Of a stretch of 64,000 nt of DNA, positions 2,699 through 63,507 are shown piece after piece. Position numbers and translations under genes: made by a program. How positions within the stretch are numbered: the first letter of the stretch is position 1; each line of letters starts with the position of its first letter. The stretch comes from Escherichia phage BYEP02: the sequence record OR757454.1, one strand, 5' to 3'. The notes below the pieces were generated by a model. It was not told where the DNA came from. It made no database searches and was given only the letters and a program-made list of their open reading frames with translations.

Positions 2699-5600
2699 TT
2701 ATGCTAAACGAACGATATAGTTAAAAGCAATGTTTTTAACCGTGTTTTCTGTATTACCTGTACTATTTACAGTGATAGTATGTCCGTGCGAACCAATAGC
2801 TACCGTGTGGGTATGAGCACCAATACCGACCGAATGGCTATGGGCACCGATACCTACAGTATGCGCGTGGTTACCCGTAGAGCTAGTAGTACCAGACCAA
2901 GTATGGGTATGGTTACCTTCTGTTGACGACTTTGCAATATATTGGCTTGTACCAGGCACAACACCGTTGCTTAGGCCAAAACCAACAACCAGGGTTCCGC
3001 TAATTCGAGTAGATCCATTAGGATATATTCCTGTGGGTTGATTATTAGTACCCCTTGGACCGGTTTGTGAGTGTTGGTGCGCACCAGCGGAACTAGTATT
3101 ACCACTCACTGTATGGCTATGGTTACCAGTGGTATTACTGGTCTTAGTACCATAATCAAAGCTTGAAGTCGTTTTGCTACCGTAATCAAAACTAGAAGTG
3201 GTCTTAGTACCCAAATCTGTGCTTGATGCACTTGCACTATGGCTATGTGACTTAACACCGTCTGCTTCTGTACTCAATACAGCACGCCCGGATGGTTTAC
3301 CCTTGATAGTTTGACCACGCATATCAGGCAGAGTGCCGGAAGGATACACCGCAGCTAACTTAGGATACAAGTCAGCATCAAATGTTTGACCTTCCATTAT
3401 GGCATAACCTTCAGGAGGTGTATCAGTAGGCCAAGGAATCGGAGCACCAATAGGATAACTTGAGACAATATCCGTCTTAAGGTTATTTATTGTGGTATTC
3501 AAGTTAGCAAAATTACCAGAACCACCTGTGATGTTACCGTCAGTACCAATTCGAATATTATTAATTTTAAGAGGCTTAGTAATATCGACTGTATCAGCAT
3601 TCAATGCAATGCCGTGGGAGTAAGTGTAATTATGCATACGAACAACATTACCACCATCGCCAATACCTAAATACCATTTTGTTACATCTGCTTTACGTCC
3701 TTGAATAAAGTTAGATGATGCTTGAGATGATGCGTTGAGCACAATACCGTCAGAATCCATGTTAACACGAAGTCTAACATCAGTCTGAACGAATTTTGAT
3801 ACATTATCAATAGTAAGCAAATTTTTTCCAGCTTGTGTATGATTACCAATCATAACACTGCCATTTGCAAGATTGATGGTAAATGGGCGTAAATTACTTA
3901 TTCCACCACTTTTACCAGCGTCTTTAAGAGTAGGAATAATATAAAAGCTAGTTTCTGAACGACGGAAAATAGCGCCGTATTCAGCATTCCAAATTCTCAA
4001 CGCATCTGCTGTTCCACCGAATTTAGCCTGACCATTTACAGATAATCCATTATTTGCAACTAAACTTGATTCAGTAACAATAGAACCAGATGATGTAATA
4101 CCACCAGAAGTTAATAAACCACCATTAACTCGAAATTGAATAGGTCCGACGGTAGAACCTGATCCGGGAGCAACTCGTTGAGAATAAAAATGGTAACCTT
4201 GTCCATCTGATACTTGAAAAACTGTTTCACGAGCACGATTGCCAGATGCATTAAAGGCATTACCCCATGCTTTGATAGATAGATAACTTTTATTCTGACC
4301 TGGGCGAGTACCGGCGGCCCACAATATAGTTTTAGTGCCATCTGTTGTTGTAGGAGCGTCAAGTTGAATACCATCGGGTCTAGCACCAGTAAGAACTAAT
4401 CTATAGTTTTAGTGCCATCTGTTGTTGTAGGAGCGTCAAGTTGAATACCGTCGGGTCTAGCACCAGTAAGAACTAATCCGTTATCAAATTTAATTCTTTG
4501 TATTGAAGATACTGTTCCGTCGGCATAAAACTGTACGTTATTAGAGCCAGTTACCAATTTCAAAATACCCGGGTTAACTTCCATGCCTTCTTGAGTATTA
4601 ATATTAGTTTTGCCTTTACCACGGAAATAGTGGTTCATTTTTCCGCCTGAGTTATAGCCAATATGTGTCTGACCGTCTCCAGCAGTGTTTTCATCAGCTT
4701 GTGTTTGAACTGATAAAAATGCAGCGTTCGTTCCAGGCATAATCCATGTTGTACCTTGGTCTTCTGAGCGTCCAAATATTGCTTTACGAGTACTACGGAA
4801 ACTATCAGGTGTGATAGATGCCAAAGATAAACCAGAACCAACGAAATCAAATACACCAGTTTTTCTATAAACTAGACCAGTTCCATTATCGCCTAAAGCA
4901 AGAAATATATTTCCTAGTGCCCCAGCATTTCCATAATCGCTTGACGGAAACCCTTGCGTCACAGTACCAATGGCCAAGCTATTGCGAATAATCATTCTAC
5001 CGTCGTTACGAATACCATATAGTTTAAATAACGGTGTATTACCAGTCCACCATGACATTTCATCTGCCAGTCCAGTCTGAGCTGTACAAATTTCATGGTA
5101 AATAGTTCCACCTGATTTAGCACGAACTTTACGAAGATAGTTTACGCCATTTGTTTCACCTGTTCCAGGATAAACATACTGAACTAATGACTGTGAATCA
5201 TATTGTCCAAAGGCTTTAGAATCGTGATTAATTAAATTAACACTAATAGTTGGTGTACTAATAGAAGTTAAAGCAGTTAATTTGCGTGCCTGGAAGATAC
5301 CACCATCAGTAGAAATGAAATGAAATTCTGAATTTTGAGCTCCCGCAGCGGTTCCTTGACGAACACGCATTGTAATTACGCCTTCATTTTCAGACTGCGG
5401 TTTTGAATATAAAACGCCACGTTCTGAGCCATTTGTATTTTCAAACCAAAGATGGGCATTTGCAGTATCGTTTGTTGCTCTTGCATAAAATGAACCCTGT
5501 GTAGATCTGAAAACTTTTGCTGTTACGCCATCAGTAGAACCAATAGGTCCATTTACAGTCATTCCACCCGTTTGTACATAATCGCCATTTAATCTCAAAA

Positions 5601-5807: not shown

Positions 5808-6473
5808 TTAATAATAGCCGAAATCTTGAACAGAATCCTTAATTACGATTTGGTCAAATCGTGGAACATGTGAAGGTTGAGATGCGGGATTCTGCGAGAA
5901 AAAGTTTGGCGCGGTTAAATTACCTGTCATAGTGTCGCCAGAACGCAACACTCTAGAGTTCGCATTTGCTGTAACAGTATTTATTGCTCCATCAACATAG
6001 TCCTTTCTAGTAAGGTCATTTGCTGATACAGGAGAAACTGCATTACTTCTTATTTGACCTACTGCTGTCACAACGCCTTTTGTACTAATATCACCATTAC
6101 GTGCATTAATTACAACATTTCGTTCCGCTGAACCTTGTGATGATTTAAAACCAATACCATTCCACGAAACAATATCAATATTTGCTACAGCAAAAGTAGC
6201 ATTATCACCGTTACCTGGATAAATACCGCATTGGTTTGTGTTGTTTATAGCATACGGAACTTGTACGCCACCGTTAAATGTTACCTTTGATGCATAAGTA
6301 CCACCATTAGCTTTAGAAACGAAATCGTTATCAGTTGCCTGTGGTTTATTATATTCTGAATATATTTTAAATGATTTATAGAGTACATCGTCACCGGCTG
6401 GATTCAATGGAAAATTTCCTTGATGCCAAATGACAGAGCCTCCGGTTGTTGAACCTACTTTTAAATCAGCCAT
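5808..6473 (-). CDS. 36: gp36 long tail fibre hinge/distal connector
   Basis: 221 aa, [21 protein letters not shown]... equals T4 gp36 length. Confidence 0.85.
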
Positions 6474-6496
6474 TGTATGCCCCTTTATTTTAATAG

Positions 6497-6504
6497 TATT
6501 TATA
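6497..6504 (-). promoter_or_regulatory. late promoter motif TATAAATA upstream of gene 36 (second copy at 6574-6581 inside duplication)
   Basis: TATTTATA on plus strand 24 nt upstream of gene 36 start. Confidence 0.5.
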
Positions 6505-6512
6505 AAGAAAAA

Positions 6513-6530
6513 GGGAGCCCGAAGGCTCCC
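6513..6530 (-). terminator. terminator hairpin after gene 35 (second, mutated copy at 6590-6607)
   Basis: GGGAGCCCGAAGGCTCCC followed on minus strand by T-run. Confidence 0.5.
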
Positions 6531-6612
6531 TCAATTTATACTTCTCTAAATTCTTGCCCCTTTATTTTAATAGTATTTATAAAGAAAAAGGGAACCCGAA
6601 GGCTCCCTCAAT

Positions 6613-7808
6613 TTATACTTCTCTAAATTCTTGCCCAAACACTTTACCAGTTTTAGACGATGCTTGTGTAGGAAGTACCATTATATCCGGAGGTGAAGCA
6701 GATTCGCAGATATAATTAACACGAATACCATTGACGCCAAATTCAGCAGGTTTTGAAATGCCGCCATTTCTTGATACTTCAGAAAAGCTTAAATTTCTCA
6801 TGCCACCTTGGCCAGCTTTAGCAGTTCTCTGTGCATATATCGTAAATCCTACTGCGTTTTCTGGAACAACTACATAATCTTCCTTTAATTCCCATGACCC
6901 AGCTTGCCCAGTAAATTCAGCTTGTGTCGAGGAAATATATCCATTTGATGCATTATAAAAACGGATAGATATATTTGTAGTTCCAAGAGCAAGTAAATCA
7001 GCATCGGCGTATAGCTGTGTTTTAAGATAAAGAACATCACCAGGAATTAAATTATAATCAGAGAGTTTACTTATTGCAGCCGAAGTTGGTAGACGCGCAA
7101 TTTCGTTATTAGTTCCACCAACCGCTGACATAAATTGCTCAACGCTTTCATACGTTCTTCTTGGAAAGCCGGTAGCTCCGACGTCTTCTAAACTGTCAAA
7201 TACAACATCTAAAATAGTTTGATAATCATCTGTGCTTTTTCTATTACTCAGTTTAACATGCTCTAATGCAATAGCTCTTTTAGAAGAAGTATAAAAAGCA
7301 GCATATGATACGTCGAATCTTGACAGTACAGAGTCAGATGGAAAAGCAGACGTTCCAGCGGTTCTTAGCCAAGATACTACCTCAGGAGGAAAATTAACCT
7401 TTCCACTGGTTAATATAGCAACAAGTCTGTTGTTTGAAAAAGAATTCATGAAACTAACAAAAGCAGCTGATGTAGTATCATTTGAAGTCGAAAAAGCATA
7501 TGACTTACTATCAACTAATGCTCCTGTAGAAGGGTCAAAAACTCTTAAATGAAGTCCTGCGCTAAATGTTTGACTTCCAACAGGATTATCCTGAAATTTA
7601 ACGTAGAAGGGTCAAAAACTCTTAAATGAAGTCCTGCGCTAAATGTTTGACTTCCAACAGGATTATCCTGAAATTTAACGTATGGTCCTTCTGCAGTAGA
7701 AAGCGGGCAAGAACCCGCTATACTTATTTTATATCTTACTGAATTGCTTTCCGATAAAAATGGCGTTTGGACATATCCTTGTCCAAACTCTGCCATAAAT
7801 TTTTCCAT
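6613..7808 (-). CDS. 35: gp35 long tail fibre hinge, frame broken by 77-bp duplication (7526-7679)
   Basis: MEKFMAEFGQGYVQTPFLSES... N-term and ...GQEFREV C-term; 372 aa after removing one repeat copy. Confidence 0.8.
7526..7679. repeat. 77-bp direct tandem duplication inside gene 35
   Basis: copies 7526-7602 and 7603-7679; identical. Confidence 0.9.
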
Positions 7809-7917
7809 AATACCTCTTATTCAACCCATTCAAATTTAACCGTTTGGACATATCCTTGTCCAAACTCTGCCATAAATTTTTCCATAATACCTCTTATTCA
7901 ACCCATTCAAATTTAAC
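7764..7917. repeat. 77-bp direct tandem duplication spanning gene 35 start and gene 34 stop
   Basis: copies 7764-7840 and 7841-7917; identical. Confidence 0.9.
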
Positions 7918-10900
7918 AGTTTTATTCACTGGGTCAGGAATAATGCGAACATTACCAATTCGTAAGAAATCACGAATAGTAAGATTTCCCATTGTAGCAT
8001 TATCAGATGGTAAAGCACCGATATCAGACGGTTGAGGAGGGTTACCTCCGTCAAATACCTGAACAAAACTTGACCAAGAGTTTTTGGTTTTCTGCCATGT
8101 ACGTGTCCAGCGAGTGGTACGCGCTTCTGGCGTCGTTGGATAAGTAATCCAATCTTGGTAAAGCGAATCAAGTGTGTTACCAAACTGAGTCAGTGTACCA
8201 GGAGATTTAACTTCTTCTCCACGTTCTAAGTATGGAAGCCCAGTCACTTCATTAGTTTTTTCAACCATTTTAAAATAACCCGGAAACTGGTTATAAGTGG
8301 CTGAATCGTTAATATCAATTGACCAGAATCCTACAGTATCAGATGTTGGTGCACGGGTGTATAAATCAGATGTTTTAGTACCCTGAGAACGAATTCTCGA
8401 GTTAACAGTCAAACCACCTGAATTTATAGTAGCACCTTTGGCAATGATTAAGCTTTCACCAATCGTTACTTGGCCAGATGCATTATTAATTGATAATGGA
8501 CGTAATCCATTAAATCCGCCAGTCTGATCACCAGATGCAGTAAGCATAAAATATGTGCTACCGCCATCATTCCTGATAAAGAATCCATAATCACCATTTA
8601 TTGCTCTGAAAGCATTTGCAGACTTGCTAATGAATTCACCATTGGCTGTAACTGAACGACCGAATGTTGCAACACCATTCACATTCATCAAACCGGAAGC
8701 ATTAATGTTTATTGGCATTACAGTACCATTAATGCTAAACGCTATATTCCCATCTTTATTACGTTGAGAATAAAAATGATTAGACGTTTCATCACCAACT
8801 TCAAATACAGTAGAACGTGTTGTATCTGATCCGCCACCAAACTGATTTCCCCATACTCTGATAGTCATCGTCTGTGCTGGGTTAGTTCCAGTCTGAGGTC
8901 CTTTCTCAAAAATCAGACGAGTTGCCGTTCCAGTATTAGAAATAGTTAATGTACTATTTGCCGAAACTGATCCACCAAACGTAGCAGTACTAAATGATAC
9001 AAGAGGGGCACTCAGATTCATTTGTTGGGTTAAGGTTAGTGAACCATTAACCGTCTGTGCAATATCCCTACGAATGAACTGAGATGAATCTAGACCATCC
9101 AATAAATTTGTATCAGCAGCTTTTGCTTTTAACGGCAAATAATTTGCTAATACACGGTTTAATTCATATGGTGATACCGCATAGCTATTTTTCCAGCTTT
9201 TGCTTTTAACGGCAAATAATTTGCTAATACACGGTTTAATTCATATGGTGATACTGCATAGCTATTTTTCTCATACAGTTCTAAATCTTGTGTAGAACCG
9301 ACTGTATCATTACCAACGAATGTAATTGAACCAGATGAAGTTTTAACAAAACCTCTTATCGCAGTAGTAGCTGCCCAAGTAGGTTCACTCTGCACAATCC
9401 ATTTTAAATTTTTTGGAGATACAGCAGTGTTCGCTGACGTTCCAGTCACAGTTTCAGACTGGGTTGCAACTTTAATAACACCTTCCTGTGCTTCAGTAGA
9501 TTTAGTACCTAAAAGCTTTTTAGGAGTTATTAAAACATTATCTAATGTTCCTGCAGCAGCTTCAACTTGTGTAGCTACACGAAGTGTACCGCGCTGTGTC
9601 TCATTTGCTTCAAGAATATTAAGTGTATAATGGTCCCAGAGAGTTCCTGATTCAACTAATCCAGATAGAGCAACAACAGAAGTACGATCAGTACTATTAA
9701 ATCTAGTTTTAATTTTTAATGGTGTAGAGATACGAGTATCGTCGACGCCTGCGTCGAATTCAACTTGTGTAGCAATTTCAGCTATACCACTTAAACTTTC
9801 AGTTGCTCTACGGTCATTTAAAGTTTTAGGAGTGACTGCACGAGTATAATCAGTCCCAGCATTAGTTTCTGCTTGCGTAGCAATTTCAATTAAACCAATT
9901 CTTCCATCAGTTGATGTCTTTTTATGTAACGTTTCTGGCGTTACAACAGCATTTGCCCATCCTTGCTGACTTTGTCCAGCAATTACTTCACTTTCAACTG
10001 CTAAAATTACTGCACCCTGTTGAGTAGGCGTAGCTTTATACTGATCCAAAGCTTTAGGCGAAACAACTAAATTATTAGTGTTTTTATTATAAACATTCGT
10101 ACCATTTAATTCACGGCTAGAAGCTGGAGTAGCACCTGCAGTAGATACAAAAGTTACAATACCAGATAATGATTCAGAACCTTGACGAGCTTGAAGCTTT
10201 TTAGGAGTGATGATTGTAGTATCATCAAAGTTACAATACCAGATAATGATTCAGAACCTTGACGAGCTTGAAGCTTTTTAGGAGTGATGATTGTAGTATC
10301 ATCGGTTCCTGTATTAGTTTCTTGCTGCGTAGCAATTTCAGCAACACCTCTGCGAGTTTCTGTAGCAGTTCTTTCATTCAGCTTTTTAGGAGTAATGATA
10401 AGGTCATCTGCAAAAGAGAATGTGGTGTTCTGATTCACTTGAGCAGTAGTTGCTATTCTTGCGATACCTCTACGAGTTTCTGTAGCAGTACGGTTAGCTA
10501 ATGTTTCTGGAGTAATTGCTAATTCTTTTTGTGGAGAATTTTCTAAATCGACGTTAGCTTGAGCTTGTGTAGCTAAAGCAATTACGCCTAATCTTGCTCT
10601 AGTAGAATCATTTAAAGAATCAACTCTTTCTACAGTTGGAACATTTTGTTGCACAACCCAGTATTTTCCATCAGAATCTTCTATATAAGCAAGTTGTAAA
10701 ACTGGAACATAATTAGTTTCACCATTAAAAACTAATTCTTGAACTGTTACCCATTCAGCCTCAGGCAGATATTCTGAGCGTTTTGGGAATTGCAGCAATT
10801 GAACTGAAGAAGCAATTTTATCTTCACCGGCAGCTTTGATTTTAACTGTTTGTCCTTTTCTCATGTAATTCATGGAAATTTTAACAGTATCACCAACAGA

Positions 10901-24831: not shown

Positions 24832-24885
24832 GTTTACAAGTCCCTCGTGTTGTGTTATAGTAGTCTTACTGACATAACATGAGGA
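24832..24885 (+). promoter_or_regulatory. 54-bp early promoter cassette (copy A), upstream of alc
   Basis: GTTTAC-18 bp-TATAGT then conserved leader; identical to 38973-39026. Confidence 0.5.
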
Positions 24886-24892
24886 CTTTATG

Positions 24893-25396
24893 ATGGATTT
24901 ACAACTTATTACTACTGAAATGGTCGTTGAAGCATATGGTGATACTACAGATGGGATTTCTGTATTCAAAGGAAATCGTCGAGTTGGATATATCACCGAT
25001 CTTAAGAAAGATTTAGCTAAGCAAGTCAAGCGGAAAACGACCATTAAAGAATATCGAAATCGTCGTCTTGAGCAAGCCCGTGATATGCTTCCTGATGCGG
25101 TTGAAGAGATGAAAGTCTTTTTAGAAAATCAACTCGCTAAGTATGATTGTGATGTGTTCATTAATCAGACTCAACCTAATGTTCATATCAATAATTGTAA
25201 ATGCTACATCATCGTTAATCCTTTGACGGGAAAACATCGCCTTGGAATCAGTAATCCAAATCGTAGCGCATCAGATATGGCAGAAGATGTTGAGGCATGC
25301 TTTAAAATTTCTAAATCTCCTGCTGAACATCATATTTTAATTAACGGTCTTTCTCAAGACGATATTGTAGAGGTTATTAAAACTTTATGCAATTAA
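24893..25396 (+). CDS. alc: Alc, inhibitor of host transcription on cytosine DNA
   Basis: 167 aa from MDLQLITTEMVVEAYGD...; position rnlA-alc. Confidence 0.8.
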   Translation: MDLQLITTEMVVEAYGDTTDGISVFKGNRRVGYITDLKKDLAKQVKRKTTIKEYRNRRLEQARDMLPDAVEEMKVFLENQLAKYDCDVFINQTQPNVHINNCKCYIIVNPLTGKHRLGISNPNRSASDMAEDVEACFKISKSPAEHHILINGLSQDDIVEVIKTLCN

Positions 25397-34321: not shown

Positions 34322-34587
34322 TGTTTGTCGTTCACACTATTTATGAAAATGAAGGTAATACTACACGTGATTACGGTCACGTAAATCAATTTTTTAGATG
34401 CAATCCAGAATTCCGAGCTCAAAAAGACGAACGAATTTTTAAAAAATGTGTAGAGCAAGGTTTCATTTACGTCAAGCACTGGATGCAAGGAAATAAAGTT
34501 AGAACTACATATCATAAGTCTTTGCCTGAGCTTAATGATGAATTGATTTATAATAGAGCTGTAAACCAAACTCTGAAGGATGAATAA
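34321..34587 (+). CDS. hypothetical protein (88 aa)
   Basis: ORF track. Confidence 0.4.
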   Translation: MFVVHTIYENEGNTTRDYGHVNQFFRCNPEFRAQKDERIFKKCVEQGFIYVKHWMQGNKVRTTYHKSLPELNDELIYNRAVNQTLKDE

Positions 34588-36050
34588 TGATTCTTAAAAT
34601 TCTGAATGAAATAGCATCTATTGGTTCAACTAAGCAGAAGCAAGCAATTCTTGAAAAGAATAAAGATAATGAATTGCTTAAACGAGTATATCGTCTGACT
34701 TATTCTCGTGGGTTGCAGTATTATATCAAGAAATGGCCTAAACCTGGTATTGCTACCCAGAGTTTTGGAATGCTGACCATTACCGATATGCTTGACTTCA
34801 TTGAATTCACGTTAGCTACTCGGAAATTGACTGGAAATGCTGCAATTGAGGAATTGACTGGATATATCACCGATGGTAAAAAGGATGATGTTGAAGTTTT
34901 GCGTCGAGTTATGATGCGAGACCTTGAATGCGGTGCTTCAGTATCTATTGCAAACAAAGTTTGGCCAGGTTTAATTCCTGAACAACCTCAAATGCTGGCA
35001 AGTTCTTATGATGAAAAAGGCATTAGTAAGAATATCAAGTTTCCAGCTTTTGCACAGTTAAAAGCAGATGGAGCTCGGTGTTTTGCTGAAGTCCGAGGTG
35101 ATGAATTAGATGATGTTCGTCTTTTATCACGAGCTGGTAATGAATATCTAGGATTAGATCTTCTTAAGGAAGAATTAATCAAAATGACTGCTGAAGCCCG
35201 CCAGATTCATCCAGAAGGTGTGTTAATTGATGGCGAATTGGTATACCATGAGCAAGTTAAAAAGGAACCAGAAGGACTAGATTTTCTTTTTGATGCTTAT
35301 CCTGAAATTAGTAAAGCTAAAGAATTCGCCGAAGTAGCGGAATCTCGTACTACTTCTAATGGAATCGCCAATAAATCCTTAAAAGGAACCATTTCTGAAA
35401 AAGAAGCTCAATGTATGAAGTTTCAGGTCTGGGATTATGTCCCGTTGGTAGAAATATACGGTCTTCCGGCGTTTCGTTTAAAATATGATGTACGTTTTTC
35501 TAAACTAGAACAAATGACATCAGGATATGATAAAGTAATTTTAATTGAAAACCAGGTAGTAAATAACCTAGATGAAGCTAAGGTAATTTATAAAAAGTAT
35601 ATTGACCAAGGTCTTGAAGGTATTATTCTCAAAAATATCGATGGATTATGGGAAAATGCTCGTTCAAAAAATCTCTATAAATTTAAAGAAGTAATTGATG
35701 TTGATTTAAAAATTGTAGGAATTTATCCTCACCGTAAAGACCCTACTAAAGCAGGTGGATTTATTCTTGAGTCAGAGTGTGGAAAAATTAAGGTAAATGC
35801 TGGTTCAGGCTTAAAAGATAAAGCCGGTGTAAAATCGCATGAACTTGACCGTACTCGCATTATGGAAAACCAAAATTATTATATTGGAAAAATTCTAGAG
35901 TGCGAATGCAATGGTTGGTTAAAATCTGATGGCCGCACTGATTACGTTAAATTATTTCTTCCGATTGCGATTCGTTTACGTGAAGATAAAACTAAAGCTA
36001 ATACGTTCGAAGATGTATTTGGCGATTTTCATGAGGTAACTGGTCTATGA
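34587..36050 (+). CDS. 30: ATP-dependent DNA ligase
   Basis: 487 aa MILKILNEIASIGSTKQKQAILEK... with KADG adenylation motif. Confidence 0.9.
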   Translation: MILKILNEIASIGSTKQKQAILEKNKDNELLKRVYRLTYSRGLQYYIKKWPKPGIATQSFGMLTITDMLDFIEFTLATRKLTGNAAIEELTGYITDGKKDDVEVLRRVMMRDLECGASVSIANKVWPGLIPEQPQMLASSYDEKGISKNIKFPAFAQLKADGARCFAEVRGDELDDVRLLSRAGNEYLGLDLLKEELIKMTAEARQIHPEGVLIDGELVYHEQVKKEPEGLDFLFDAYPEISKAKEFAEVAESRTTSNGIANKSLKGTISEKEAQCMKFQVWDYVPLVEIYGLPAFRLKYDVRFSKLEQMTSGYDKVILIENQVVNNLDEAKVIYKKYIDQGLEGIILKNIDGLWENARSKNLYKFKEVIDVDLKIVGIYPHRKDPTKAGGFILESECGKIKVNAGSGLKDKAGVKSHELDRTRIMENQNYYIGKILECECNGWLKSDGRTDYVKLFLPIAIRLREDKTKANTFEDVFGDFHEVTGL

Positions 36051-36235
36051 AAGCTTACTTAGAAACAATTGTCGTGGCTCAAAAAGAAGGTGGAGATGTT
36101 TCTACTTCTGTATCACAAGTCATTCTCGAATTTGTAGATGCATACGCTTATAATAAATTTACAGAAACATTTGATGCTTATGAAAAAGGTCCAAAGTTTG
36201 AAATATATCGTACTCTCTTACCTATAGATTATTAA
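36047..36235 (+). CDS. hypothetical small protein (62 aa)
   Basis: ORF track; followed by hairpin. Confidence 0.4.
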   Translation: MKAYLETIVVAQKEGGDVSTSVSQVILEFVDAYAYNKFTETFDAYEKGPKFEIYRTLLPIDY

Positions 36236-36287: not shown

Positions 36288-38612
36288 ATGGAACTAATTA
36301 CAGAATTATTTGACGAAGATACTACTCTTCCGATTACAAACTTAAATCCAAAGAAGAAAATACCACAAATTTTTTCAGTTCATGTTGATGACGCAATTGA
36401 ACAACCAGGCTTTCGTTTATGTACCTATACATCTGGAGGTGATACTAATCGTGATTTAAAGATGGGCGATAAAATGATGCACATTGTTCCTTTTACATTA
36501 ACTGCTAAAGGTTCAATTGCTAAATTGAAAGGTCTTGGTCCAAGCCCAATTAATTATATCAATTCAGTTTTTACTGTTGCAATGCAAACAATGCGTCAGT
36601 ATAAAATTGATGCCTGCATGCTTCGTATTCTTAAGTCTAAAACCGCTGGTCAAGCTCGACAAATTCAAGTTATTGCTGATAGACTTATCCGTAGTCGTTC
36701 AGGTGGCAGATACGTCCTTCTTAAGGAACTCTGGGATTATGATAAAAAGTATGCATATATTCTTATACATCGCAAAAATGTATCACTAGAAGACATTCCA
36801 GGAGTTCCGGAAATTAGTACCGAGCTCTTTACTAAAGTTGAATCGAAGGTCGGTGATGTTTATATCAATAAAGATACTGGAGCTCAAGTAACTAAAAATG
36901 AGGCAATTGCAGCATCTATTGCAAGGTCGGTGATGTTTATATCAATAAAGATACTGGAGCTCAAGTAACTAAAAATGAGGCAATTGCAGCATCTATTGCA
37001 CAAGAAAACGATAAACGTTCTGACCAAGCTGTAATCGTTAAAGTTAAAATTTCCCGTAGAGCAATTGCACAAAGTCAATCATTAGAGTCTTCTAGATTTG
37101 AAAGTGAATTATTCCAGAAGTATGAATCTACAGCAGCTAATTTTAATAAACCAGCTACTGCACCTTTAATTCCCGAAGCAGAAGAAATGAAAATTGGAAT
37201 TAATTCATTAGCTTCTAAAACTAAGGCAGCAAAAATCATTGCCGAAGGAACTGCAGATGAACTTCATTATGACTATAAATTCTTTTCAAAAAGTGAGGTT
37301 AATGAAGTTTCTGAAAAAATTAAAGATGTAATTCTTAATGCGATTAAAAATGAACCAACCACTTCAATAAAATGTTTAGAGAAATACGCAGCAGCTGTTA
37401 ATCAATTCTTTGAAGAATATAAAGATAATTGGCTTGATAAACATAATAAAACACGTAAAGGACAGCCAGATGAAGTCTGGGAAGAAATAACTAAAAATTC
37501 CTGGAACGCGACAAAAACTAAATTCCTCAAAAGAATGATTTATAGTTTCTCTGGAATTGGTGCAGGTCCAATGATTGATATTACTATTGCCCGTGATGGT
37601 TCTAAATATACTCCATCACAAAAGCGCGGCATTAGAGAGTATTGCGGTTCAGGATATACTGACATCAATAATCTTCTTTTAGGACGCTACAATCCAGAAC
37701 GATATGATGTAATGAGTGAAAAAGAAATTGAATCTGCTATAAATAACTTAGATTCAGCTTTTGAAAATGGTGACCGCATACCGGAAGGCATCACAGTTTA
37801 TCGTGCTCAAAGCATGACTGCTCCTATATACGAAGCATTAGTTAAAAATAAAGTATTCTATTTCAGAAATTTTGTATCTACTTCTTTAACTCCTATCATT
37901 TTTGGACGTTTTGGATAGTTAAAAATAAAGTATTCTATTTCAGAAATTTTGTATCTACTTCTTTAACTCCTATCATTTTTGGACGTTTTGGAATTACACA
38001 TGCTGGTATTGGTCTTTTAGAACCAGAAGCTCGCAATGAATTAACAGTTGATAAAAATGAAGAAGGAATAACTATTAATCCAAACGAAATAAGAGCGTAT
38101 AAAGAAAATCCTGAATACGTTAAAGTTCAAATAGGATGGGCAATTGATGGAGCAATCCAAACGAAATAAGAGCGTATAAAGAAAATCCTGAATACGTTAA
38201 AGTTCAAATAGGATGGGCAATTGATGGAGCTCATAAAGTTAATGTTGTATATCCAGGAAGTCTCGGAATAGCAACAGAAGCTGAAGTTATTCTACCGCGT
38301 GGATTGATGGTCAAAGTTAATAAAATAACTGATGCTTCTAATAATGACGGAACAACATCTAATAATACAAAACTCATTCAAGCTGAAGTTATGACCACGG
38401 AAGAGCTCACCGAATCGGTAATCTATGATGGAGACCATTTAATGGAAACTGGTGAATTGGTTGCAATGACAGGTGATATTGAAATAGAAGACAGAGTTGA
38501 CTTTGCATCATTTGTTTCATCAAATGTTAAACAGAAAGTAGAATCATCTCTTGGAATTATTGCGTCTTGCATAGATATTGCAAACATGCCTTACAAGTTC
38601 GTTCAAGGATAA
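36288..38612 (+). CDS. alt: Alt ADP-ribosyltransferase (packaged), frame broken by three 77-bp duplications
   Basis: MELITELFDEDTTLPITNLNPKKKIPQIF... through ...IANMPYKFVQG; pieces 36285.., 37187.., 38304..38612. Confidence 0.85.
36846..36999. repeat. 77-bp direct tandem duplication inside alt
   Basis: copies 36846-36922 and 36923-36999; identical. Confidence 0.9.
37839..37992. repeat. 77-bp direct tandem duplication inside alt
   Basis: copies 37839-37915 and 37916-37992; identical. Confidence 0.9.
38077..38230. repeat. 77-bp direct tandem duplication inside alt
   Basis: copies 38077-38153 and 38154-38230; identical. Confidence 0.9.
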
Positions 38613-38615
38613 ATC

Positions 38616-38972
38616 ATGGAACTTATTACATAATTATTTGACGGCGCTTCGGCGCCGGTTGTTAACTTAAATCCTAAGCATAAAATACCACAAATTTTTG
38701 CTATTCAAGCCGGCGAAGAAAGCGTGCTTCCTGGATTTAGATTTTGTACATACACCTCTGGCGGTGATACAGATAAAACGTTAAACCAGGCGACAAAATG
38801 ATGCATATCGTAATGATAGGTGTTAATGAGAAACTATCATTAGTTAAGCTTAAAAACTTGGGTGGAAATCCAATTGGTGTCATTAATGCTGTTTTTGATA
38901 CTGCTCTTCAAACAATGAAACAGTATAAAATCGACGCATGCCTATTACGCGTACTAAAAAGTTCAAAATGTA
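38616..38972 (+). pseudogene. decayed partial paralogue of alt N-terminal region
   Basis: translation MELIT*LFDGASAPVVNLNPKHKIPQIF...FCTYTSGGDTDK... parallels Alt residues 1-115 but has an in-frame stop at codon 6 and a frameshift. Confidence 0.5.
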
Positions 38973-39026
38973 GTTTACAAGTCCCTCGTGTTGTGTTATA
39001 GTAGTCTTACTGACATAACATGAGGA
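38973..39026 (+). promoter_or_regulatory. 54-bp early promoter cassette (copy B), upstream of ORF 39034
   Basis: identical to 24832-24885. Confidence 0.5.
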
Positions 39027-39033
39027 ACACAAA

Positions 39034-39324
39034 ATGAAATCTTCTTTACGCTTTTTAGGTCAAGAACTTGTAGTTGAAGGCGTTATTCCTGCTGATAATG
39101 CTTTTAATGAAGCAGTTTATGATGAATTTATCAAAATTTTCGGAACAGATAAAAAGTTTGGAATTTTTCCTTCTGAAAATTTTTCAAAGCCAGAACAGAC
39201 TGAAAGTATTTTTCAGGGTGTAGTAACAGGTAAATTTGAGTCAGAAGCTCCGGTAAAAATTGAAGTTTATATTGAAGACAGTTTAGTTGCTTCAGTTGCT
39301 GCTTTCATTTCATTCCGTAAATAA
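39034..39324 (+). CDS. hypothetical protein (96 aa)
   Basis: ORF directly downstream of 54-bp promoter repeat; ends before bidirectional terminator. Confidence 0.45.
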   Translation: MKSSLRFLGQELVVEGVIPADNAFNEAVYDEFIKIFGTDKKFGIFPSENFSKPEQTESIFQGVVTGKFESEAPVKIEVYIEDSLVASVAAFISFRK

Positions 39325-39330
39325 AAATAT

Positions 39331-39348
39331 GGGGACCGAAAGGTCCCC
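39331..39348. terminator. bidirectional terminator hairpin between ORF 39034-39324 and gene 54
   Basis: GGGGACCGAAAGGTCCCC; T-run on the minus-strand side. Confidence 0.5.
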
Positions 39349-39396
39349 GTTGTTATATTGCTCCTAATATTTTACTCTGCGAATTGACAATCCCTG

Positions 39397-40320
39397 TCAT
39401 AGTATACTAATATTTGAAATGCTTCCTGAGGTTCCTCCTAGTCTACTAAGTCGTGAAAGCGAATTAGATAGTCCAGTAACACCTCCACTATTTCCGAGAA
39501 CGCTTTGAATACCATTTATAGCAGCAGATTCAAGCCATTCAAGCGCAGCTTGCCTATCAACTGCTCCAGCCTGCATCACTCTGTACGCAAAAGTAACATC
39601 AAATGTAGTTATTTGGTTATCTCCATCATATGATAACTCAGGAGCGCTCACTGATATTGGAATGCATCCGGTGAACATCACAGCAGTATGAGGTAATCCA
39701 TTGCGAGAATGAAGATTAACCTGAATGTCTGCCTCGACATCTTGTGGCAAAGCGCGTAATCCAGTTACTGGGTCTTGAACGGAGTTAACCCAGTCTTGCA
39801 TTGCACGATAGTTACAAGCTTCTGAATCCATTCTAAATGAAATAACCAAAGGGTCTAATTCTCTCCCAGTTATACGAATATTAGGAGAATTATAGTTCCA
39901 GTCAGTTTCATAGGATAATCTATTCTCTGGCATTTTTACAGAATATATCATCAATCCAGATGAGTTATATGCCATGTTAAAGAAGTCAATTAAATATGTA
40001 CCAACTGTAAATGAGCCCAATAAACTTTGAACTGTACGTTGACTCATGGCACCAATAAGATATTTACTAACCCCTGATTTTCTTATCAGTTTTTGTGTGC
40101 CAGCTGTAATTAGCGTGGTAATTCCCTGATTAATATCACCTTGAGTTAATCCTAACCAATTTGAATTTAGGCCCAAGTTATTATAAGAAAAGTTGCTAAT
40201 TGAACTTATCAACGAAGAGCTTTTAGTTGATGGAGTTGTTGCAAAAACGCAGCTAAACATATTATTACGTTGGAAATCTGCGTTTATTGCTTGATTATTA
40301 AATTCCTCTAAAGAATACAT
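39397..40320 (-). CDS. 54: gp54 baseplate tail-tube initiator
   Basis: 307 aa MYSLEEFNNQAINADFQRNNMFSCVF...; start overlaps gp48 stop (TAATG). Confidence 0.8.
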   Translation of the reverse strand: MYSLEEFNNQAINADFQRNNMFSCVFATTPSTKSSSLISSISNFSYNNLGLNSNWLGLTQGDINQGITTLITAGTQKLIRKSGVSKYLIGAMSQRTVQSLLGSFTVGTYLIDFFNMAYNSSGLMIYSVKMPENRLSYETDWNYNSPNIRITGRELDPLVISFRMDSEACNYRAMQDWVNSVQDPVTGLRALPQDVEADIQVNLHSRNGLPHTAVMFTGCIPISVSAPELSYDGDNQITTFDVTFAYRVMQAGAVDRQAALEWLESAAINGIQSVLGNSGGVTGLSNSLSRLSRLGGTSGSISNISIL

Positions 40321-41414
40321 TAAAAAGTCCCCGCATATAAAGAAGCACGGTTTAACGTGATAATTTCTCTCATAGTAATCTCGAGAGTAAATGTACTAGG
40401 GAGGTTTGGAGCAATAGCTAATCCGTTAAAGTTACCATTAGGTGTTTTATCAAATCTAATGCTCTGTATTTGGCATGGACCAAATATTTCCGTTTTTCCA
40501 TCAAACTTAGATGTTGCACCAAAGTTTTTCACCATCCAAACTGTCGGGTTTGAAACTACAAGAACGTTCGTTAAACTTGCTGTCATTTTCTCAAATAGTG
40601 TTTTATTTTTAGCTGCGTCTTCCGGAGATAAAGGTTCAATTAACGTAGAACGATACCAATCATCCAAATACCCCTTTATTTCAGCAGCGTATTGAGATTT
40701 ACCTGTTTCGCCATAAGAAAAATAGTTAAAATATTGATAGATATTAATAATAGCCATTAAATCTTCTGTTGAACGTGGAGTCAAATCCCATGTAAACACT
40801 TTAGTTCTATTTTCAGCACCACCATACATACTTCTGGCTGTCGTATAAATCTGTTCATTATTATCAGCCATTATACCTTGTGTTATACTTTCCAGTGCCC
40901 CAAATACTGCGGTTGAAGCAATATTACTTAGCACACCAGTAGCAGTACCTCCGCCTCTACTGATAAGGCTTTCTTGAACATCATTAAATCTATGTGTTGA
41001 TGTATCAACATCAGATTTAGATCTCGGTAAAAGAATGTTTGCGACAGGAGCTTTACTTATTGTTCCTGAATTATTATTTGATATTAATCCATTTGATAGT
41101 TTTGATACTGTACTACTAATAGTGTTTCTAGCTGTACTTAAAATACTCGAAGATGAAGAAGAGTAGTTAGATCTCATCGATCTAAGACTTCCAGAATCCC
41201 TAGATGACATATTGTATGCAGTAAATAATAATCCATTCTTATATAGATCTGTTACCTGGAAGTCCCCTGTAGTGTCATTACCACTAGCACGCCCAGTTGG
41301 AAACTGGGCAGTGTATGTTTTAGTTACTACTTCTGATTTAGTGCTCTGTCCGGCTGAAATTTTCTCACCGGACTTTTTAATTAAATCAGTAGTTATTTCT
41401 TTAACAATTGCCAT
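40320..41414 (-). CDS. 48: gp48 baseplate tail-tube cap
   Basis: 364 aa as T4 gp48. Confidence 0.8.
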   Translation of the reverse strand: MAIVKEITTDLIKKSGEKISAGQSTKSEVVTKTYTAQFPTGRASGNDTTGDFQVTDLYKNGLLFTAYNMSSRDSGSLRSMRSNYSSSSSSILSTARNTISSTVSKLSNGLISNNNSGTISKAPVANILLPRSKSDVDTSTHRFNDVQESLISRGGGTATGVLSNIASTAVFGALESITQGIMADNNEQIYTTARSMYGGAENRTKVFTWDLTPRSTEDLMAIINIYQYFNYFSYGETGKSQYAAEIKGYLDDWYRSTLIEPLSPEDAAKNKTLFEKMTASLTNVLVVSNPTVWMVKNFGATSKFDGKTEIFGPCQIQSIRFDKTPNGNFNGLAIAPNLPSTFTLEITMREIITLNRASLYAGTF

Positions 41415-41422
41415 ATTATTCC

Positions 41423-43272
41423 TTAATTAACTCCAGTCGCATCAAATACACCAGGAGCAGTTGTGCTTGTGACAGGTGTCATATTATGAACGACAGTATT
41501 TTTCTTAATAACATTATTAGTATTATTGATTGAAGGAGATGCTTGCTGAACAGGAGCTTGCTGTGCTTTGTTCTTTTCAATAACCTGGACCTGTTTCGCT
41601 TCTGGCGATTTAGCAGAAGTTTCAGGTTTGGCATTAGGCTGATTTTTCTTGAGCTCTTGATAAGTAGCATCAATTTTAGAAAATCTAGCAGCAAGTTCTT
41701 TTTTAACTGCCGGTGAATTGTTTAAATCCGGGTCATCCATCCGTTTTTTAAGGTCTTCATAGGCAGATTCAACAGATTTAACCGTTGAGTCTTTACTCAT
41801 ATCAGCTGAATCAGCATATTTTTCAAAACGAATCATCGCGGCACGTGCTTCATTAGCCTTCATTAAAGCATTTTTTCTTTCTTCAGGTGAAAGCTGCTTT
41901 AATTTTTCTTCTTCTGCTGCACGTTCTTCGTCGGTAGTTAGTGCTTCTTTATTATCAACACCGCGAATCCAATTAGATGCACGAGTTTTCCAATTAGCAA
42001 TTTTATCTAATCCTTTTGCTATCGGACCAAGGTCTCCGTTCATTCGTTTATCTTGATAATTTGCAACTTTTTCTTGGTCTTCTTTATTGAGAGATGCTCC
42101 AGTAGAATTTTGGAAATTTTCCAATGCTCTTCCTTCTACTTCATCAGCAGTATCCTTCATACCAGGAATGACTCGAAGAATTGCTGCAGATAATTTAGCC
42201 ATACCTAATTGAATAAGCTCTCCTAAATTAAAAAGAACACTTCCAAGTCCTTCTATGATAGCTGTTGTCAATCCACCCCAATCTCCCGCTTCCCAAAGTT
42301 GTTTAATTTTATCAATAGAATCAAAGATGCTCTGTAATAAAGGACCCCACCACCCCAATCTCCCGCTTCCCAAAGTTGTTTAATTTTATCAATAGAATCA
42401 AAGATGCTCTGTAATAAAGGACCCCATGTTCCGGTTTCGCTAGAGAATTTAGTAAAATCAGTACTATATAAATCCCAGGCTTTTGAAAATTTATCTGACC
42501 AGTATTTAAAATGAACCATCAACAGGTCTATTCCAACAACAACAGCCAATATCATTGCAGTCATTTTAGCAGCTTCAATAGCAGCACTAACGGTATACTT
42601 AAATAGCATGCTTGATATTTTATCAGTAATTGAAATAGATTTCTTAAATCCAAAATCAACTGTCTTTGTTAATTTATCTAAAGCTTGAGATAATTTTAAG
42701 TTAAATGCTTCTTTTTTCTGTTTTTCTTCTGGTGATTCTTGTTTGGGTTCAACTGGTTGAGGGGTAGGGAAAAAATCAGCGTCAGGATCATTATTAACTG
42801 CTTCGGGAGCTGGTAATAAAGGACCCACAGATTCGGCAGTATCATCCTCAACGACTTTAACAGGAATAGCGCTTTCAACCGTGGCTAAACTAGTTCCCGT
42901 CTGTTGAATTCCAGCTGTCTGAATTTTTTGCTCTAGTAAACTTGTTAATTTATCTAATTTGCTTCCGAGTGATTCACCGATTTCTTTATTAATATTGTTG
43001 CCAATTTCGACAGTTTCAGCAATTAACTCAGAACCAGCAGTAGTATCACTCACTGCGCTTTCTACGTTATCAATTGCTCCAATTATTTCATTCGATTTTT
43101 CTTCGACAGTTTGAGCTATTAATTCAGAAGCAGCTTGAGCATCATCCAATTTCGTAGAAATGTCATTAAGCCCAGATAAAGTATTAGAAGCGGATTTAGC
43201 CGCTTCCTGTGTTGGTTTATTATCTGAAATAACTTTTCTACGCATCGTTTGCATTTCTTGTGGCTTTTTCAT
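41423..43272 (-). CDS. 29: gp29 baseplate hub / tail length determinator, frame broken by 77-bp duplication (42273-42426)
   Basis: 1850 nt minus 77 = 590 aa + stop as T4 gp29. Confidence 0.8.
42273..42426. repeat. 77-bp direct tandem duplication inside gene 29
   Basis: copies 42273-42349 and 42350-42426; identical. Confidence 0.9.
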
Positions 43273-61373: not shown

Positions 61374-63507
61374 TTAACCTGCAAGACCAGTTAACTCGTC
61401 GAAATCTGCACCAGTAGCAGTTGCGACGAAATTAAGTTGGATATAATTTATACTTCTAGCCGGTTGGATGTAGAATGTTGCAACAAACTCATTTCTATCA
61501 ATTACTGACGGAGTGTTATTTGTTGTATCGCAAACTACACGATATTCATAAATTCCACCGAGAGCTTTAATTCCCTGTAAGTATTGGGCAGTTTCTGTGC
61601 GGAACGATGAACGGGTAAACGCGTTGTTTAATTCGAACAAACGATATTTTGAACTACGTCCGATATTCGTTTTCAACATATTAAACAGACGACGAACGTT
61701 AATACGATCAAATGGAGAAGGAACAGAAGTAGCTGTTTTATCACCATACAATACGTAACCATCACCACCTGTACCGGTTACCGGGTTGATAGCTTCTTGG
61801 TATAAACGGTCGCGCTGAGCCTGGCGAGTTTCAATAGCAAGTTTAATAACGTTAAGAATCTGACCACGATTATAACCAGCTGGAGACATCCAAGTCTGAG
61901 ATACGTTATCAGTTCTTGCGCATAAACCAGCAATATCAGCTGCTAATGGAACCCAGCGATTGACATCATTATATTTGTCATACTGATATTTGTAGTTACC
62001 ATCAATTGCTGCATAGGTTGAACTGATATTAAAGTTATTATCAGTGTATGAACCTGTTGCGGTTCTCCAATTGACTAAGTTATCAACAGCGCGAGTTACA
62101 GGAATTCCAACTACAGTTTCGCGCGGTGGTGAGCACAATACTAAGCAATCCTGGCGAGCATCCCCGATTGAAACGACGTGTTTTTGGACAGTAGATGCTG
62201 TTTCTAAAGATTCACCGGCACAAGAACCCGCAATAAACAACTGAACGTCAACAGATTCACGGTCAGCAAAGAAGTCCCAGGCTTCCATTAAATCTCCTGC
62301 TGTTACTTCAGCATTTGATGATAATCCACCAGACAGAGTTAAAATTCCAGAGAAGCCTTCTGGCCAGTTTTGTGCAGTTGCAAAAATATATTCTGAACCA
62401 CCTTTTGCGAAAAAGTCATCGATATAGATGTTACTATCGTAAATATCTTTTTCACCGCGCTTTGTTGAAAGAACAACGCTTTGAACAATAGCATCATTAC
62501 GACGAACTATAATAGCGTACTGTGAATCAGTTTGTGGTCCATATCCAAACACAGTTTTAGCAGTAGATGCACGAGTACCACCGCCTGGATAAATTGGGAG
62601 TAATGCAGAAGCACCTTTTGCATAGTCAGCTTTAGATACTATTTCAATTTCAATTTTATCGCCTAATTCGCCTGGATAAAGCGCTACTACTCCTGGAATT
62701 CCGTATTTTTCGAGATTTGCTTGAAAGCCAACCTCTGTCATAGCAGCTTCAGCATTTTCAATTTCAGCTAATAAAATACCAGAATCAGTAATAATTTTTC
62801 CAAGAGTTATTACTGCAGCTAAACCAGAGCATTTTCAATTTCAGCTAATAAAATACCAGAATCAGTAATAATTTTTCCAAGAGTTATTACTGCAGCTAAA
62901 CCAGAGGAAGATGAAGAAATTTCCGCAGTCCAGTTAGAACCTAATTCCGGATATTCACCGACTTCTTTAGCTTTAGCGATAATTTTTGCAGTAGGAATAT
63001 TAATTTTCTTAATTTTTCCATCTACGTCTACTTCAGTAATTTTACCTTCAGTTTCAATAGCATCTGAAACATATTTGACCGTGATTTTATCTCCAACTGC
63101 GTAGTTACTACCTGGGGTAGAAATTGTGTATTCAATATTACCGGCAATCGGAGATGAGTTTTTAGCGGTATCTCTATCGACAGCACGCACAACTCGCAAA
63201 TCATTTCCATATTGTAAGAAATTCATTGCAGACATAAAATAGTCAGCAGTTTCAGCTGTAGGTTGACCAAAAGTATTAACTAAATCTACTTCATTTGTAA
63301 CCTGTTTGATCTGAAAAGCAGGACCCCACTGGAATTTACCGGCCAAAGCTGCTGTACCAGTAGAGTTATTAACCACGGTGCTTTGAACTGAAAAGCAGGA
63401 CCCCACTGGAATTTACCGGCCAAAGCTGCTGTACCAGTAGAGTTATTAACCACGGTGCTTTGAACCGTAGTTTCTTTGAGCTCAATGCCCGGAGATAATA
63501 AAGTCAT
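61374..63507 (-). CDS. 18: gp18 tail sheath protein, frame broken by two 77-bp duplications
   Basis: MTLLSPGIELKETTVQSTVVNNSTGTAALAGKF...; 2134 nt minus 154 = 659 aa + stop. Confidence 0.85.
62751..62904. repeat. 77-bp direct tandem duplication inside gene 18
   Basis: copies 62751-62827 and 62828-62904; identical. Confidence 0.9.
63311..63464. repeat. 77-bp direct tandem duplication inside gene 18
   Basis: copies 63311-63387 and 63388-63464; identical. Confidence 0.9.

Follow-up and report, generated by a model that had tools for sequence, protein, structure and literature searches.

A probable pseudogene next to alt in Escherichia phage BYEP02: the 5' stump of a second tandem alt paralogue

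Introduction

In phage T4 (NC_000866), the gene alt, encoding the Alt ADP-ribosyltransferase, is accompanied by two small open reading frames (ORFs), alt.-1 (T4p199, 61 amino acids) and alt.-2 (T4p198, 67 amino acids). According to the GenBank note of T4 they 'appear to be a duplication of the first part of gene alt', that is, an old duplication with a stop codon and a new start. The pair was also described as an alt duplication by Nolan et al. (2006, PMC1524935), where further duplications of alt are listed, a full-length one in phage 44RR (ORF187c) as well as partial ones in 44RR (ORF188c) and RB49 (ORF183c). The labels currently attached to alt.-1 and alt.-2 vary between 'hypothetical protein' and 'ADP-ribosyltransferase'. 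Here we analyse the equivalent locus of Escherichia phage BYEP02 (sequence record OR757454.1) in a stretch of 64,000 nucleotides (nt), called the window throughout, in which a first-pass annotation made from the letters alone had noticed a decayed partial paralogue directly downstream of alt. This remnant, located at 38616-39001, is very probably a pseudogene, namely what is left of the 5' part of a second alt paralogue, in tandem with alt, which many related phages carry at full length.

The core of this finding is already known, as the remnant is the alt.-1/alt.-2 relic of T4 plus one extra nonsense mutation. The deletion junction and the ratio of long to short genes that we report are refinements of this picture and represent no new kind of thing; in our literature searches, we found no paper spelling out the junction or stating that long copies outnumber short ones by 4:1.

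Results and Discussion

The remnant starts with an ATG at 38616, 3 nt beyond the alt stop codon (38610-38612), and its frame reads MELIT before it is closed by a TAA at codon 6 (38631-38633). Past this stop codon, the same frame reads LFDGASAPVVNLNPKHKIPQIFAIQAGEESVLPGFRFCTYTSGGDTDKTLNQATK (LFDGASAP...GGDTDKTLNQATK) and closes at a TGA at 38799-38801, while the neighbouring frame reads ...GDKMMHIVMIGVNEKLSLVKLKNLGGNPIGVINAVFDTALQTMKQYKIDACLLRVLKSSKCSLQVPRVVL (...GDKMMHIV...KIDACLLRVLK...) and closes at a TAG at 38999-39001. The change of frame is a -1 frameshift, caused by the loss of one A from an ancestral run of five (A5) that is now AAAA at 38775-38778 on the plus strand; alignment shows AAAAA at the equivalent position in phages SG1, N2, SYGD1, FL23 and AV121 and in five full-length genes described below. 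The reading frame is further disrupted by an out-of-frame deletion. The stop at codon 6 and the frameshift had both been called in the first-pass annotation, and both are borne out by the translations of the three forward frames.

The lesions divide the remnant into two parts on the plus strand. The alt.-1-equivalent part (38616..38801) holds codons 1-61 of the lost gene and is shut by the TAA at codon 6, and the alt.-2-equivalent ORF of 67 amino acids (38798..39001) holds codons 62-116 followed by a 12-codon out-of-frame tail. The ATG of the latter overlaps the TGA of the alt.-1 frame in the sequence ATGA.

Descent of the remnant from the alt family is evident at both nucleotide and protein level. 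In a blastn comparison with the rest of the window, the sole long match was the 5' end of alt (36288-36487, 70.5 % over 200 nt, E=2.4e-20), with a shorter additional match within alt at 36558-36617. Once the lesions are repaired, the translation shares 61.5 % identity with residues 1-117 of Alt over 117 amino acids (pairwise blastp, E=1.8e-53), so that the similarity lies well beyond chance, and it matches PHROG 802, 'Alt-like RNA polymerase ADP-ribosyltransferase', at positions 2-120 of 674 (E=6e-50). The nucleotide alignment with the 5' end of alt is colinear from the ATG to codon 116, interrupted by one 3-nt indel and one 1-nt gap. The proposed colinearity with the Alt N-terminus therefore stands, 38616-38962 aligning to Alt residues 1-117. 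Of the extent first assigned to the remnant, 38616-38972, the start stands and the end does not, since homology to Alt stops at 38962 (codon 116) and the ORF tail continues to 39001.

The two parts of the remnant are also recognized individually. In the repaired protein, residues 1-56 are matched by PHROG 23015, to which alt.-1 belongs (E=1.4e-40), and PHROG 15247 matches the alt.-2-equivalent ORF (E=8.8e-50), which covers positions 64-120 of the Alt-like PHROG 802. A Pfam scan detected no family in the repaired 128-amino-acid product or in the 67-amino-acid ORF, an Rfam search of 38400-39500 at E<=1 returned merely two sub-threshold chance matches, and the minus-strand ORFs within the remnant (33, 48 and 49 amino acids) matched no PHROG family. 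With clear homology, no PF03496 domain and no uninterrupted reading frame, the remnant is a member of the Alt family through its ancestry alone.

The window comes from a Tequatrovirus, a T4-like phage, and runs in the orientation opposite to the T4 GenBank record; its gene order lig, alt.1, alt, remnant, alt.-3, 54, 48, 29 is that of T4. The DNA of alt.-1/alt.-2 of T4 is about 98 % identical to the remnant and has its position, deletion junction, -1 frameshift and 67-amino-acid alt.-2 ORF in common with it. The suggestion that the alt-adjacent ORFs of T4 are differently decayed equivalents proved right, because they carry the same frameshift but GAA instead of TAA at codon 6, leaving the 61-amino-acid alt.-1 open in T4 and closed in the remnant. 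The remnant thus retains the alt.-2 ORF and has no open alt.-1 ORF, and in BYEP01 and ACG-C40, which carry the same TAA, no alt.-1 coding sequence is annotated. The few further substitutions include N17T in T4 and N53D in the remnant.

Intact versions of the stump exist in other phages, both as an uninterrupted 128-amino-acid ORF and as a full-length gene of 685 amino acids. When the repaired 128-amino-acid product was used as a tblastn query, the records of the T4 group fell into two kinds. In the smaller kind, the whole query is matched, as in the window. In the larger kind, residues 1-116 are matched at 98-99 % identity within a long gene annotated as Alt-like ADP-ribosyltransferase. This long gene measures 2,058 base pairs (bp; 685 amino acids), begins 3 nt downstream of alt and has alt.-3 as its next neighbour in RB14, T2, ZN18, ZCEC15 and PYps32T; it is named alt.-2 in RB14 (6001-8058 of the retrieved stretch) and T2_202 in T2 (3153-5210 of the retrieved stretch) and is also present in PST and RB6/7/33. 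The name alt.-2 was given in RB14 by the annotators, which implies that they had recognized the orthology. More distant genera contain two to three alt-like places per genome.

The first 348 nt of the long gene are identical to the remnant at 333-337 positions (95.7-96.8 %), compared to merely 231 of 352 positions (~66 %) between the remnant and the window's own alt. The product of the long gene is 42 % identical to Alt across its full length, shares the N-terminus MELITELFD with it and contains a PF03496 domain, which spans residues 416-620 in Alt.-2 and residues 378-627 in Alt of RB14; its motifs YR.., STS and EAEVILPRG align with those of Alt. A PDB sequence search with the full-length paralogue retrieved no solved structure, and our literature searches found no paper on the activity or targets of this second Alt paralogue. 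The full-length paralogue occupies the same locus as the remnant and is intact with its PF03496 domain, whereas the remnant lacks codons 117-682 and retains the last 11 nt of the gene and the promoter downstream of it.

The junction itself is still readable in the window. Homology to the 5' part of the long gene ends with the surviving copy of a 9-bp direct repeat, CTAAAAAGT (38954..38962, plus strand), which marks the site of a 1,699-bp deletion. It is followed directly by TCAAAATGTAG (38963..38973, plus strand), the last 11 nt of the lost gene (...F K M stop), identical to the 3' end of alt.-2 in RB14, T2 and PYps32T; the old TAG of the full-length gene is kept here out of frame. In four of the five full-length genes (RB14, T2, ZCEC15 and PYps32T), CTAAAAAGT occurs at both end-points, at gene positions 340-348 and 2039-2047, the exception being ZN18 with CTAAAGAGT at gene position 340. 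Removing the 1,699 bp from RB14 in silico yields an interval of 428 nt between the alt stop and the alt.-3 start, which is the exact interval length in N2, SYGD1, FL23, AV121 and SG1, and the 128-codon ORF structure is recovered as well. As 1,699 is not a multiple of 3, the truncated frame acquires the alien tail SSKCSLQVPRVVL, read in part from the alt.-3 promoter. Because the junction, the retained 3' end, the interval length and the ORF structure are all reproduced, the direction of change is from long to short.

These comparisons suggest the following course of events. An ancestor would have carried two full-length tandem genes, each with an N-terminal region and an ADP-ribosyltransferase domain. 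A deletion of 1,699 bp between the 9-bp repeats CTAAAAAGT, presumably by slippage or recombination between them, the classical route to deletions in T4, then removed codons 117-682 of the paralogue together with its catalytic domain and, being out of frame, created a 128-codon ORF whose last 12 codons derive from the old 3' end and the alt.-3 early promoter. A slip in the A5 run (-1), common to the window and T4, would next have split the stump into what is annotated as 'alt.-1' and 'alt.-2', and the change from GAA to TAA at codon 6, absent from T4, would have been fixed as a further lesion in the lineage of the window. Truncated copies are found on differing 5' haplotypes, T2-like in FL23 and AV121 and ZN18/ZCEC15-like in N2 and SYGD1; these data are explained just as well by one deletion and subsequent recombination, F111L having appeared later in one sub-lineage, as by recurrent deletion.

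To see how far truncation and decay have spread, we surveyed the GenBank phage collection, which was chosen because IMG/VR gave too few loci (2 loci with the exact 29-nt remnant pattern). The stretch 38560-39340 is matched at >=90 % by 502 phage records. At least 80 % of the deleted 3' part is present in 402 records and the truncated junction in 90 records, both counts including duplicate RefSeq/GenBank entries and ~15 T4 laboratory records. With a query of 45 nt around codon 6, which seeds on exact match only, the TAA was found in 44 records, 44 of 44 being of the truncated type. By combining this list with one-piece versus two-piece tblastn matches, we obtained an approximate breakdown of the lesions among the 90 truncated records: the 128-amino-acid ORF is intact in 5 (N2, SYGD1, AV121, FL23, FL44), closed by the stop only in ~12 (e.g. 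SG1, fPS-2, fPS-90, AV119/120), broken by the frameshift only in ~41 (T4, RB55, RB59, G8, F25 and others) and affected by both in ~32 (the window, BYEP01, Lutter, slur03, ACG-C40 and others). The occurrence of all four combinations of two lesions 144 nt apart points to recombination or recurrent slippage in the A run.

Nonsense and frameshift lesions are confined to truncated copies. When codons 1-116 are compared among the five full-length genes, synonymous sites make up 22 of the 23 polymorphic ones, compared to 7 synonymous and 6 non-synonymous or disabling changes private to nine truncated sequences, the six being E6*, N17T, N53D, the frameshift, F111L and a 1-nt deletion in F25 (6:7 versus 1:22, Fisher p=0.005, for a small sample with rough polarisation). 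The direction of these data fits a loss of constraint after the deletion. The 1-nt deletion in F25 lies inside the junction repeat and alters the alt.-2 tail (6239-6463 of the retrieved stretch), and in F1 and FN 772 nt match the 781-nt query, corresponding to a deletion of ~9 nt; both changes represent further independent decay of the remnant.

Taken as the stump of a gene that lost its catalytic domain and then decayed, the remnant would have no protein function, and we infer that it has none. It is probably still transcribed through read-through, and its only working part is probably the 3' end, where it overlaps the pre-existing promoter cassette of alt.-3. Several points weigh against this interpretation. 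The 67-amino-acid alt.-2 ORF is open in most truncated copies examined and might be translated, from a start at the ATGA overlap with a weak AGG 7 nt upstream, and mass spectrometry easily misses small proteins. The substitution test has little power, since truncated copies and full-length genes differ by no more than a few per cent, and the 'private' alleles were judged against just five full-length sequences. Furthermore, the remnant has been retained in ~90 records, which could reflect recency or some function in cis.

Action in cis is the alternative that survives best, although we consider it unlikely. It holds that the remnant persists because a UUCG hairpin protects or terminates the alt mRNA and because its tail holds the early promoter of alt.-3, and it is compatible with pseudogene status. 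The hairpin, CGGCGC-UUCG-GCGCCG with a C(UUCG)G tetraloop (38642..38657, plus strand), starts 30 nt downstream of the alt stop codon, has a folding energy of -12.8 kcal/mol (z=-2.6) and is invariant in 14 of 14 aligned truncated and full-length sequences, while nothing comparable forms in the homologous stretch of alt (-3.8 kcal/mol). The hairpin may have a role at the 3' end of the alt mRNA or in damping translation of the second gene. However, the hairpin also lies within the coding region of the intact full-length gene, so that it was neither created by the remnant nor is specific to it; in addition, no U-run follows it and a terminator scan did not call it, which leaves the hairpin as a minor explanation.

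The promoter is the other element in the case for a function in cis. An early promoter, stem-loop and Shine-Dalgarno cassette for alt.-3 (38973..39026, plus strand) encodes the tail of the remnant ORF and resembles the promoter-early stem-loop (PeSL) type. With a -35 element TTTACA (38974-38979) and a -10 element TATAGT (38997-39002), it reached 10/12 with TG in a promoter scan; its stem-loop folds at -23 kcal/mol (z=-4.4) and its Shine-Dalgarno sequence is GAGGA. The 54 nt GTTTACAAGTCCCTCGTGTTGTGTTATAGTAGTCTTACTGACATAACATGAGGA are repeated exactly at 24832-24885 and 38973-39026, a promoter is annotated at the cassette position in phage Lutter, and in T4 Alt.-3 is early at both RNA and protein level (PMC9697503 Table S2). 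Nevertheless, the cassette predates the deletion, and the promoter is pre-existing intergenic DNA instead of part of the old gene. The 290 nt between the hairpin and the junction are left without such an explanation, and close kinship of the phages accounts for the conservation of the stretch as a whole.

It is improbable, in our view, that the stump is a domesticated fragment, whose hairpin would serve the late alt mRNA or whose Alt.-2 or 128-amino-acid peptide would act via the N-terminal region of Alt, for instance in prohead loading. We regard it as quite improbable, too, that the locus encodes a working small protein, be it the 67-amino-acid Alt.-2, a pair of Alt.-1 and Alt.-2 or the 128-amino-acid form, which might enter the prohead or modulate Alt. 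The alt.-2 ORF is open in both the window and T4, the ATGA overlap is typical of translational coupling, five phages have an intact 128-amino-acid ORF, and in a T4 time course by Wolfram-Schauerte et al. the alt.-1 and alt.-2 RNAs were detected and assigned to the class 'middle' (PMC9697503 Table S2). The Alt.-1 and Alt.-2 proteins, however, went undetected where ~85 % of T4 proteins were seen (PMC9697503 Table S2), and no Pfam domain is recognized in the remnant. About 94 % of the truncated records carry at least one lesion that disables the 128-amino-acid ORF, and with alt.-1 shut at codon 6, coupling is lost in the window. The alt.-2 start is internal in the frameshift-free phages, the tail is altered in F25 and in F1/FN, and disabling and non-synonymous changes are in excess.

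We give very little credence to the view that the duplication never extended beyond the first ~350 nt of alt, so that the stump was never part of a full-length gene, even though this is the literal wording of the T4 GenBank note and the homology to Alt ends at codon 116. The stump is ~96 % identical to the full-length gene found at this locus in ~400 relatives and only ~66 % identical to its own alt, and the last 11 nt and stop of the full-length gene are kept right after the 9-bp end-point repeat. The first-pass annotation was thus correct in seeing a decayed duplicate of alt, but the duplication was not partial from the outset, as a full-length paralogue later lost 1,699 bp. Finally, there is next to no chance that the stop and frameshift arose from errors in sequencing or assembly, or that programmed recoding bypasses them: the window does hold many assembly-type duplications of 77 bp and the frameshift does sit in a homopolymer, but 44 independent phage records have the same TAA, the A4 run recurs in T4 and dozens of other records, no 77-bp duplication lies within the remnant (as the first-pass annotation had said) or touches 38231-42272, no recoding signal was found, and the stop and frameshift would need two separate recoding events.

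Both lesions are genuine and no assembly errors, since the natural isolate BYEP01, the best database match over 38560-39340, is 100 % identical over these 781 nt. The deletion pseudogene remains the preferred interpretation: an intact orthologue exists at the locus, the repeat stands at both end-points of the long gene with one copy left at the junction, and, in a small sample, later disabling mutations and relaxed constraint are seen.

The functional paralogue alt (36288..38612, plus strand), whose RB14 orthologue carries the PF03496 ADP-ribosyltransferase domain, is itself broken in the window by three 77-bp duplications, with second copies at 36923-36999, 37916-37992 and 38154-38230. Removing these three copies restores a single alt ORF of 697 amino acids, and none of the best-matching phage records has the duplications. 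Across the 64 kb, there are ~31 two-copy tandem repeats with a period of 77, about one per 2 kb, in genic and intergenic DNA alike (examples are 4325-4478, 6478-6636, 36846-37000, 37839-37992, 38077-38230, 42273-42426 and 63305-63465), and their copies are mostly 97-100 % identical. They look like an assembly artefact in which the edges of a k=77 de Bruijn graph were joined without trimming the overlap, and the few imperfect copies suggest joins between strain variants. Given the ~31 occurrences across the whole window, we dropped a biological explanation of the 77-bp duplications; wherever the window shows a frameshift or a 'broken gene', it needs to be compared with this pattern.

Upstream of alt lie the genes for DNA ligase gp30 (34587-36050) and alt.1 (36047-36235). 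Downstream, the intact alt.-3 (39034..39324, plus strand; 96 amino acids) belongs to DUF5498 (PF17602, E=1.4e-64), and is served by the promoter that forms the tail of the remnant ORF. T4 is known to escape from the CmdTAC defence through C-terminal extensions of Alt.-3 (PMC11618068). A terminator scan called a bidirectional terminator hairpin on both strands between alt.-3 and gene 54 (39329..39350), and genes 54, 48 and 29 lie beyond alt.-3 on the opposite strand. The second copy of the 54-nt repeat, at 24832-24885, precedes an ORF of 168 amino acids (24890-25396) that is probably alc.

A different arrangement was observed in Escherichia phage vB_EcoM_KAW1E185 (NC_054922.1), which has a single alt gene of 685 amino acids between alt.1 and alt.-3 (3501-5558 of the retrieved stretch). 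Up to about residue 595, its product is of the alt type and near-identical to Alt of RB14; from the shared EAEVILPRG motif onward, it is of the alt.-2 type. From this mosaic, it appears to be a fusion of both tandem paralogues through unequal recombination.

Conclusion

For annotation, our results mean that alt.-1 and alt.-2 of T4-type genomes are two pieces of one broken gene, for which the label pseudogene is apt. T4 belongs to a minority in this respect, as about four fifths of the sequenced Tequatrovirus records, T2 included, have a second, apparently intact Alt-type ADP-ribosyltransferase. Since T4 has lost this second enzyme, work on phage ADP-ribosylation in T4 only misses one enzyme of the set. 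The locus also illustrates cleanly, in natural phages, how a tandem pair of paralogues can be resolved in the T-even group, with two routes visible, an internal deletion at a 9-bp repeat in T4 and the window and a fusion at a conserved motif in KAW1E185.

Compared to known systems, the remnant stands closest to its own relatives. It is homologous to the N-terminal 116 residues of T4 Alt, and the start MELITELFD is common to both; Alt, however, is an enzyme of 682-697 amino acids, a late-expressed, head-packaged and injected mono-ADP-ribosyltransferase, whereas the remnant has neither a catalytic domain nor an intact frame. The alt paralogues of 44RR and RB49 likewise stand in tandem beside alt, full-length or partial, but belong to other genera and are merely ~40 % identical. 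Like the PeSL cassettes of T4-type phages, which are said to mediate shuffling (PMC2839356, PMC4122927), the alt.-3 cassette combines a promoter-like early site with a stem-loop and occurs twice in the window; the deletion end-points are the 9-bp repeats and not the cassette.

Classical deletions in T4, for example in rII, have their end-points in short direct repeats, one copy of which is retained. The event at the alt locus likewise involves a short repeat, of 9 bp, with one copy left, but unlike the rII deletions observed in the laboratory, it emerges from comparative genomics and has been fixed in natural lineages.

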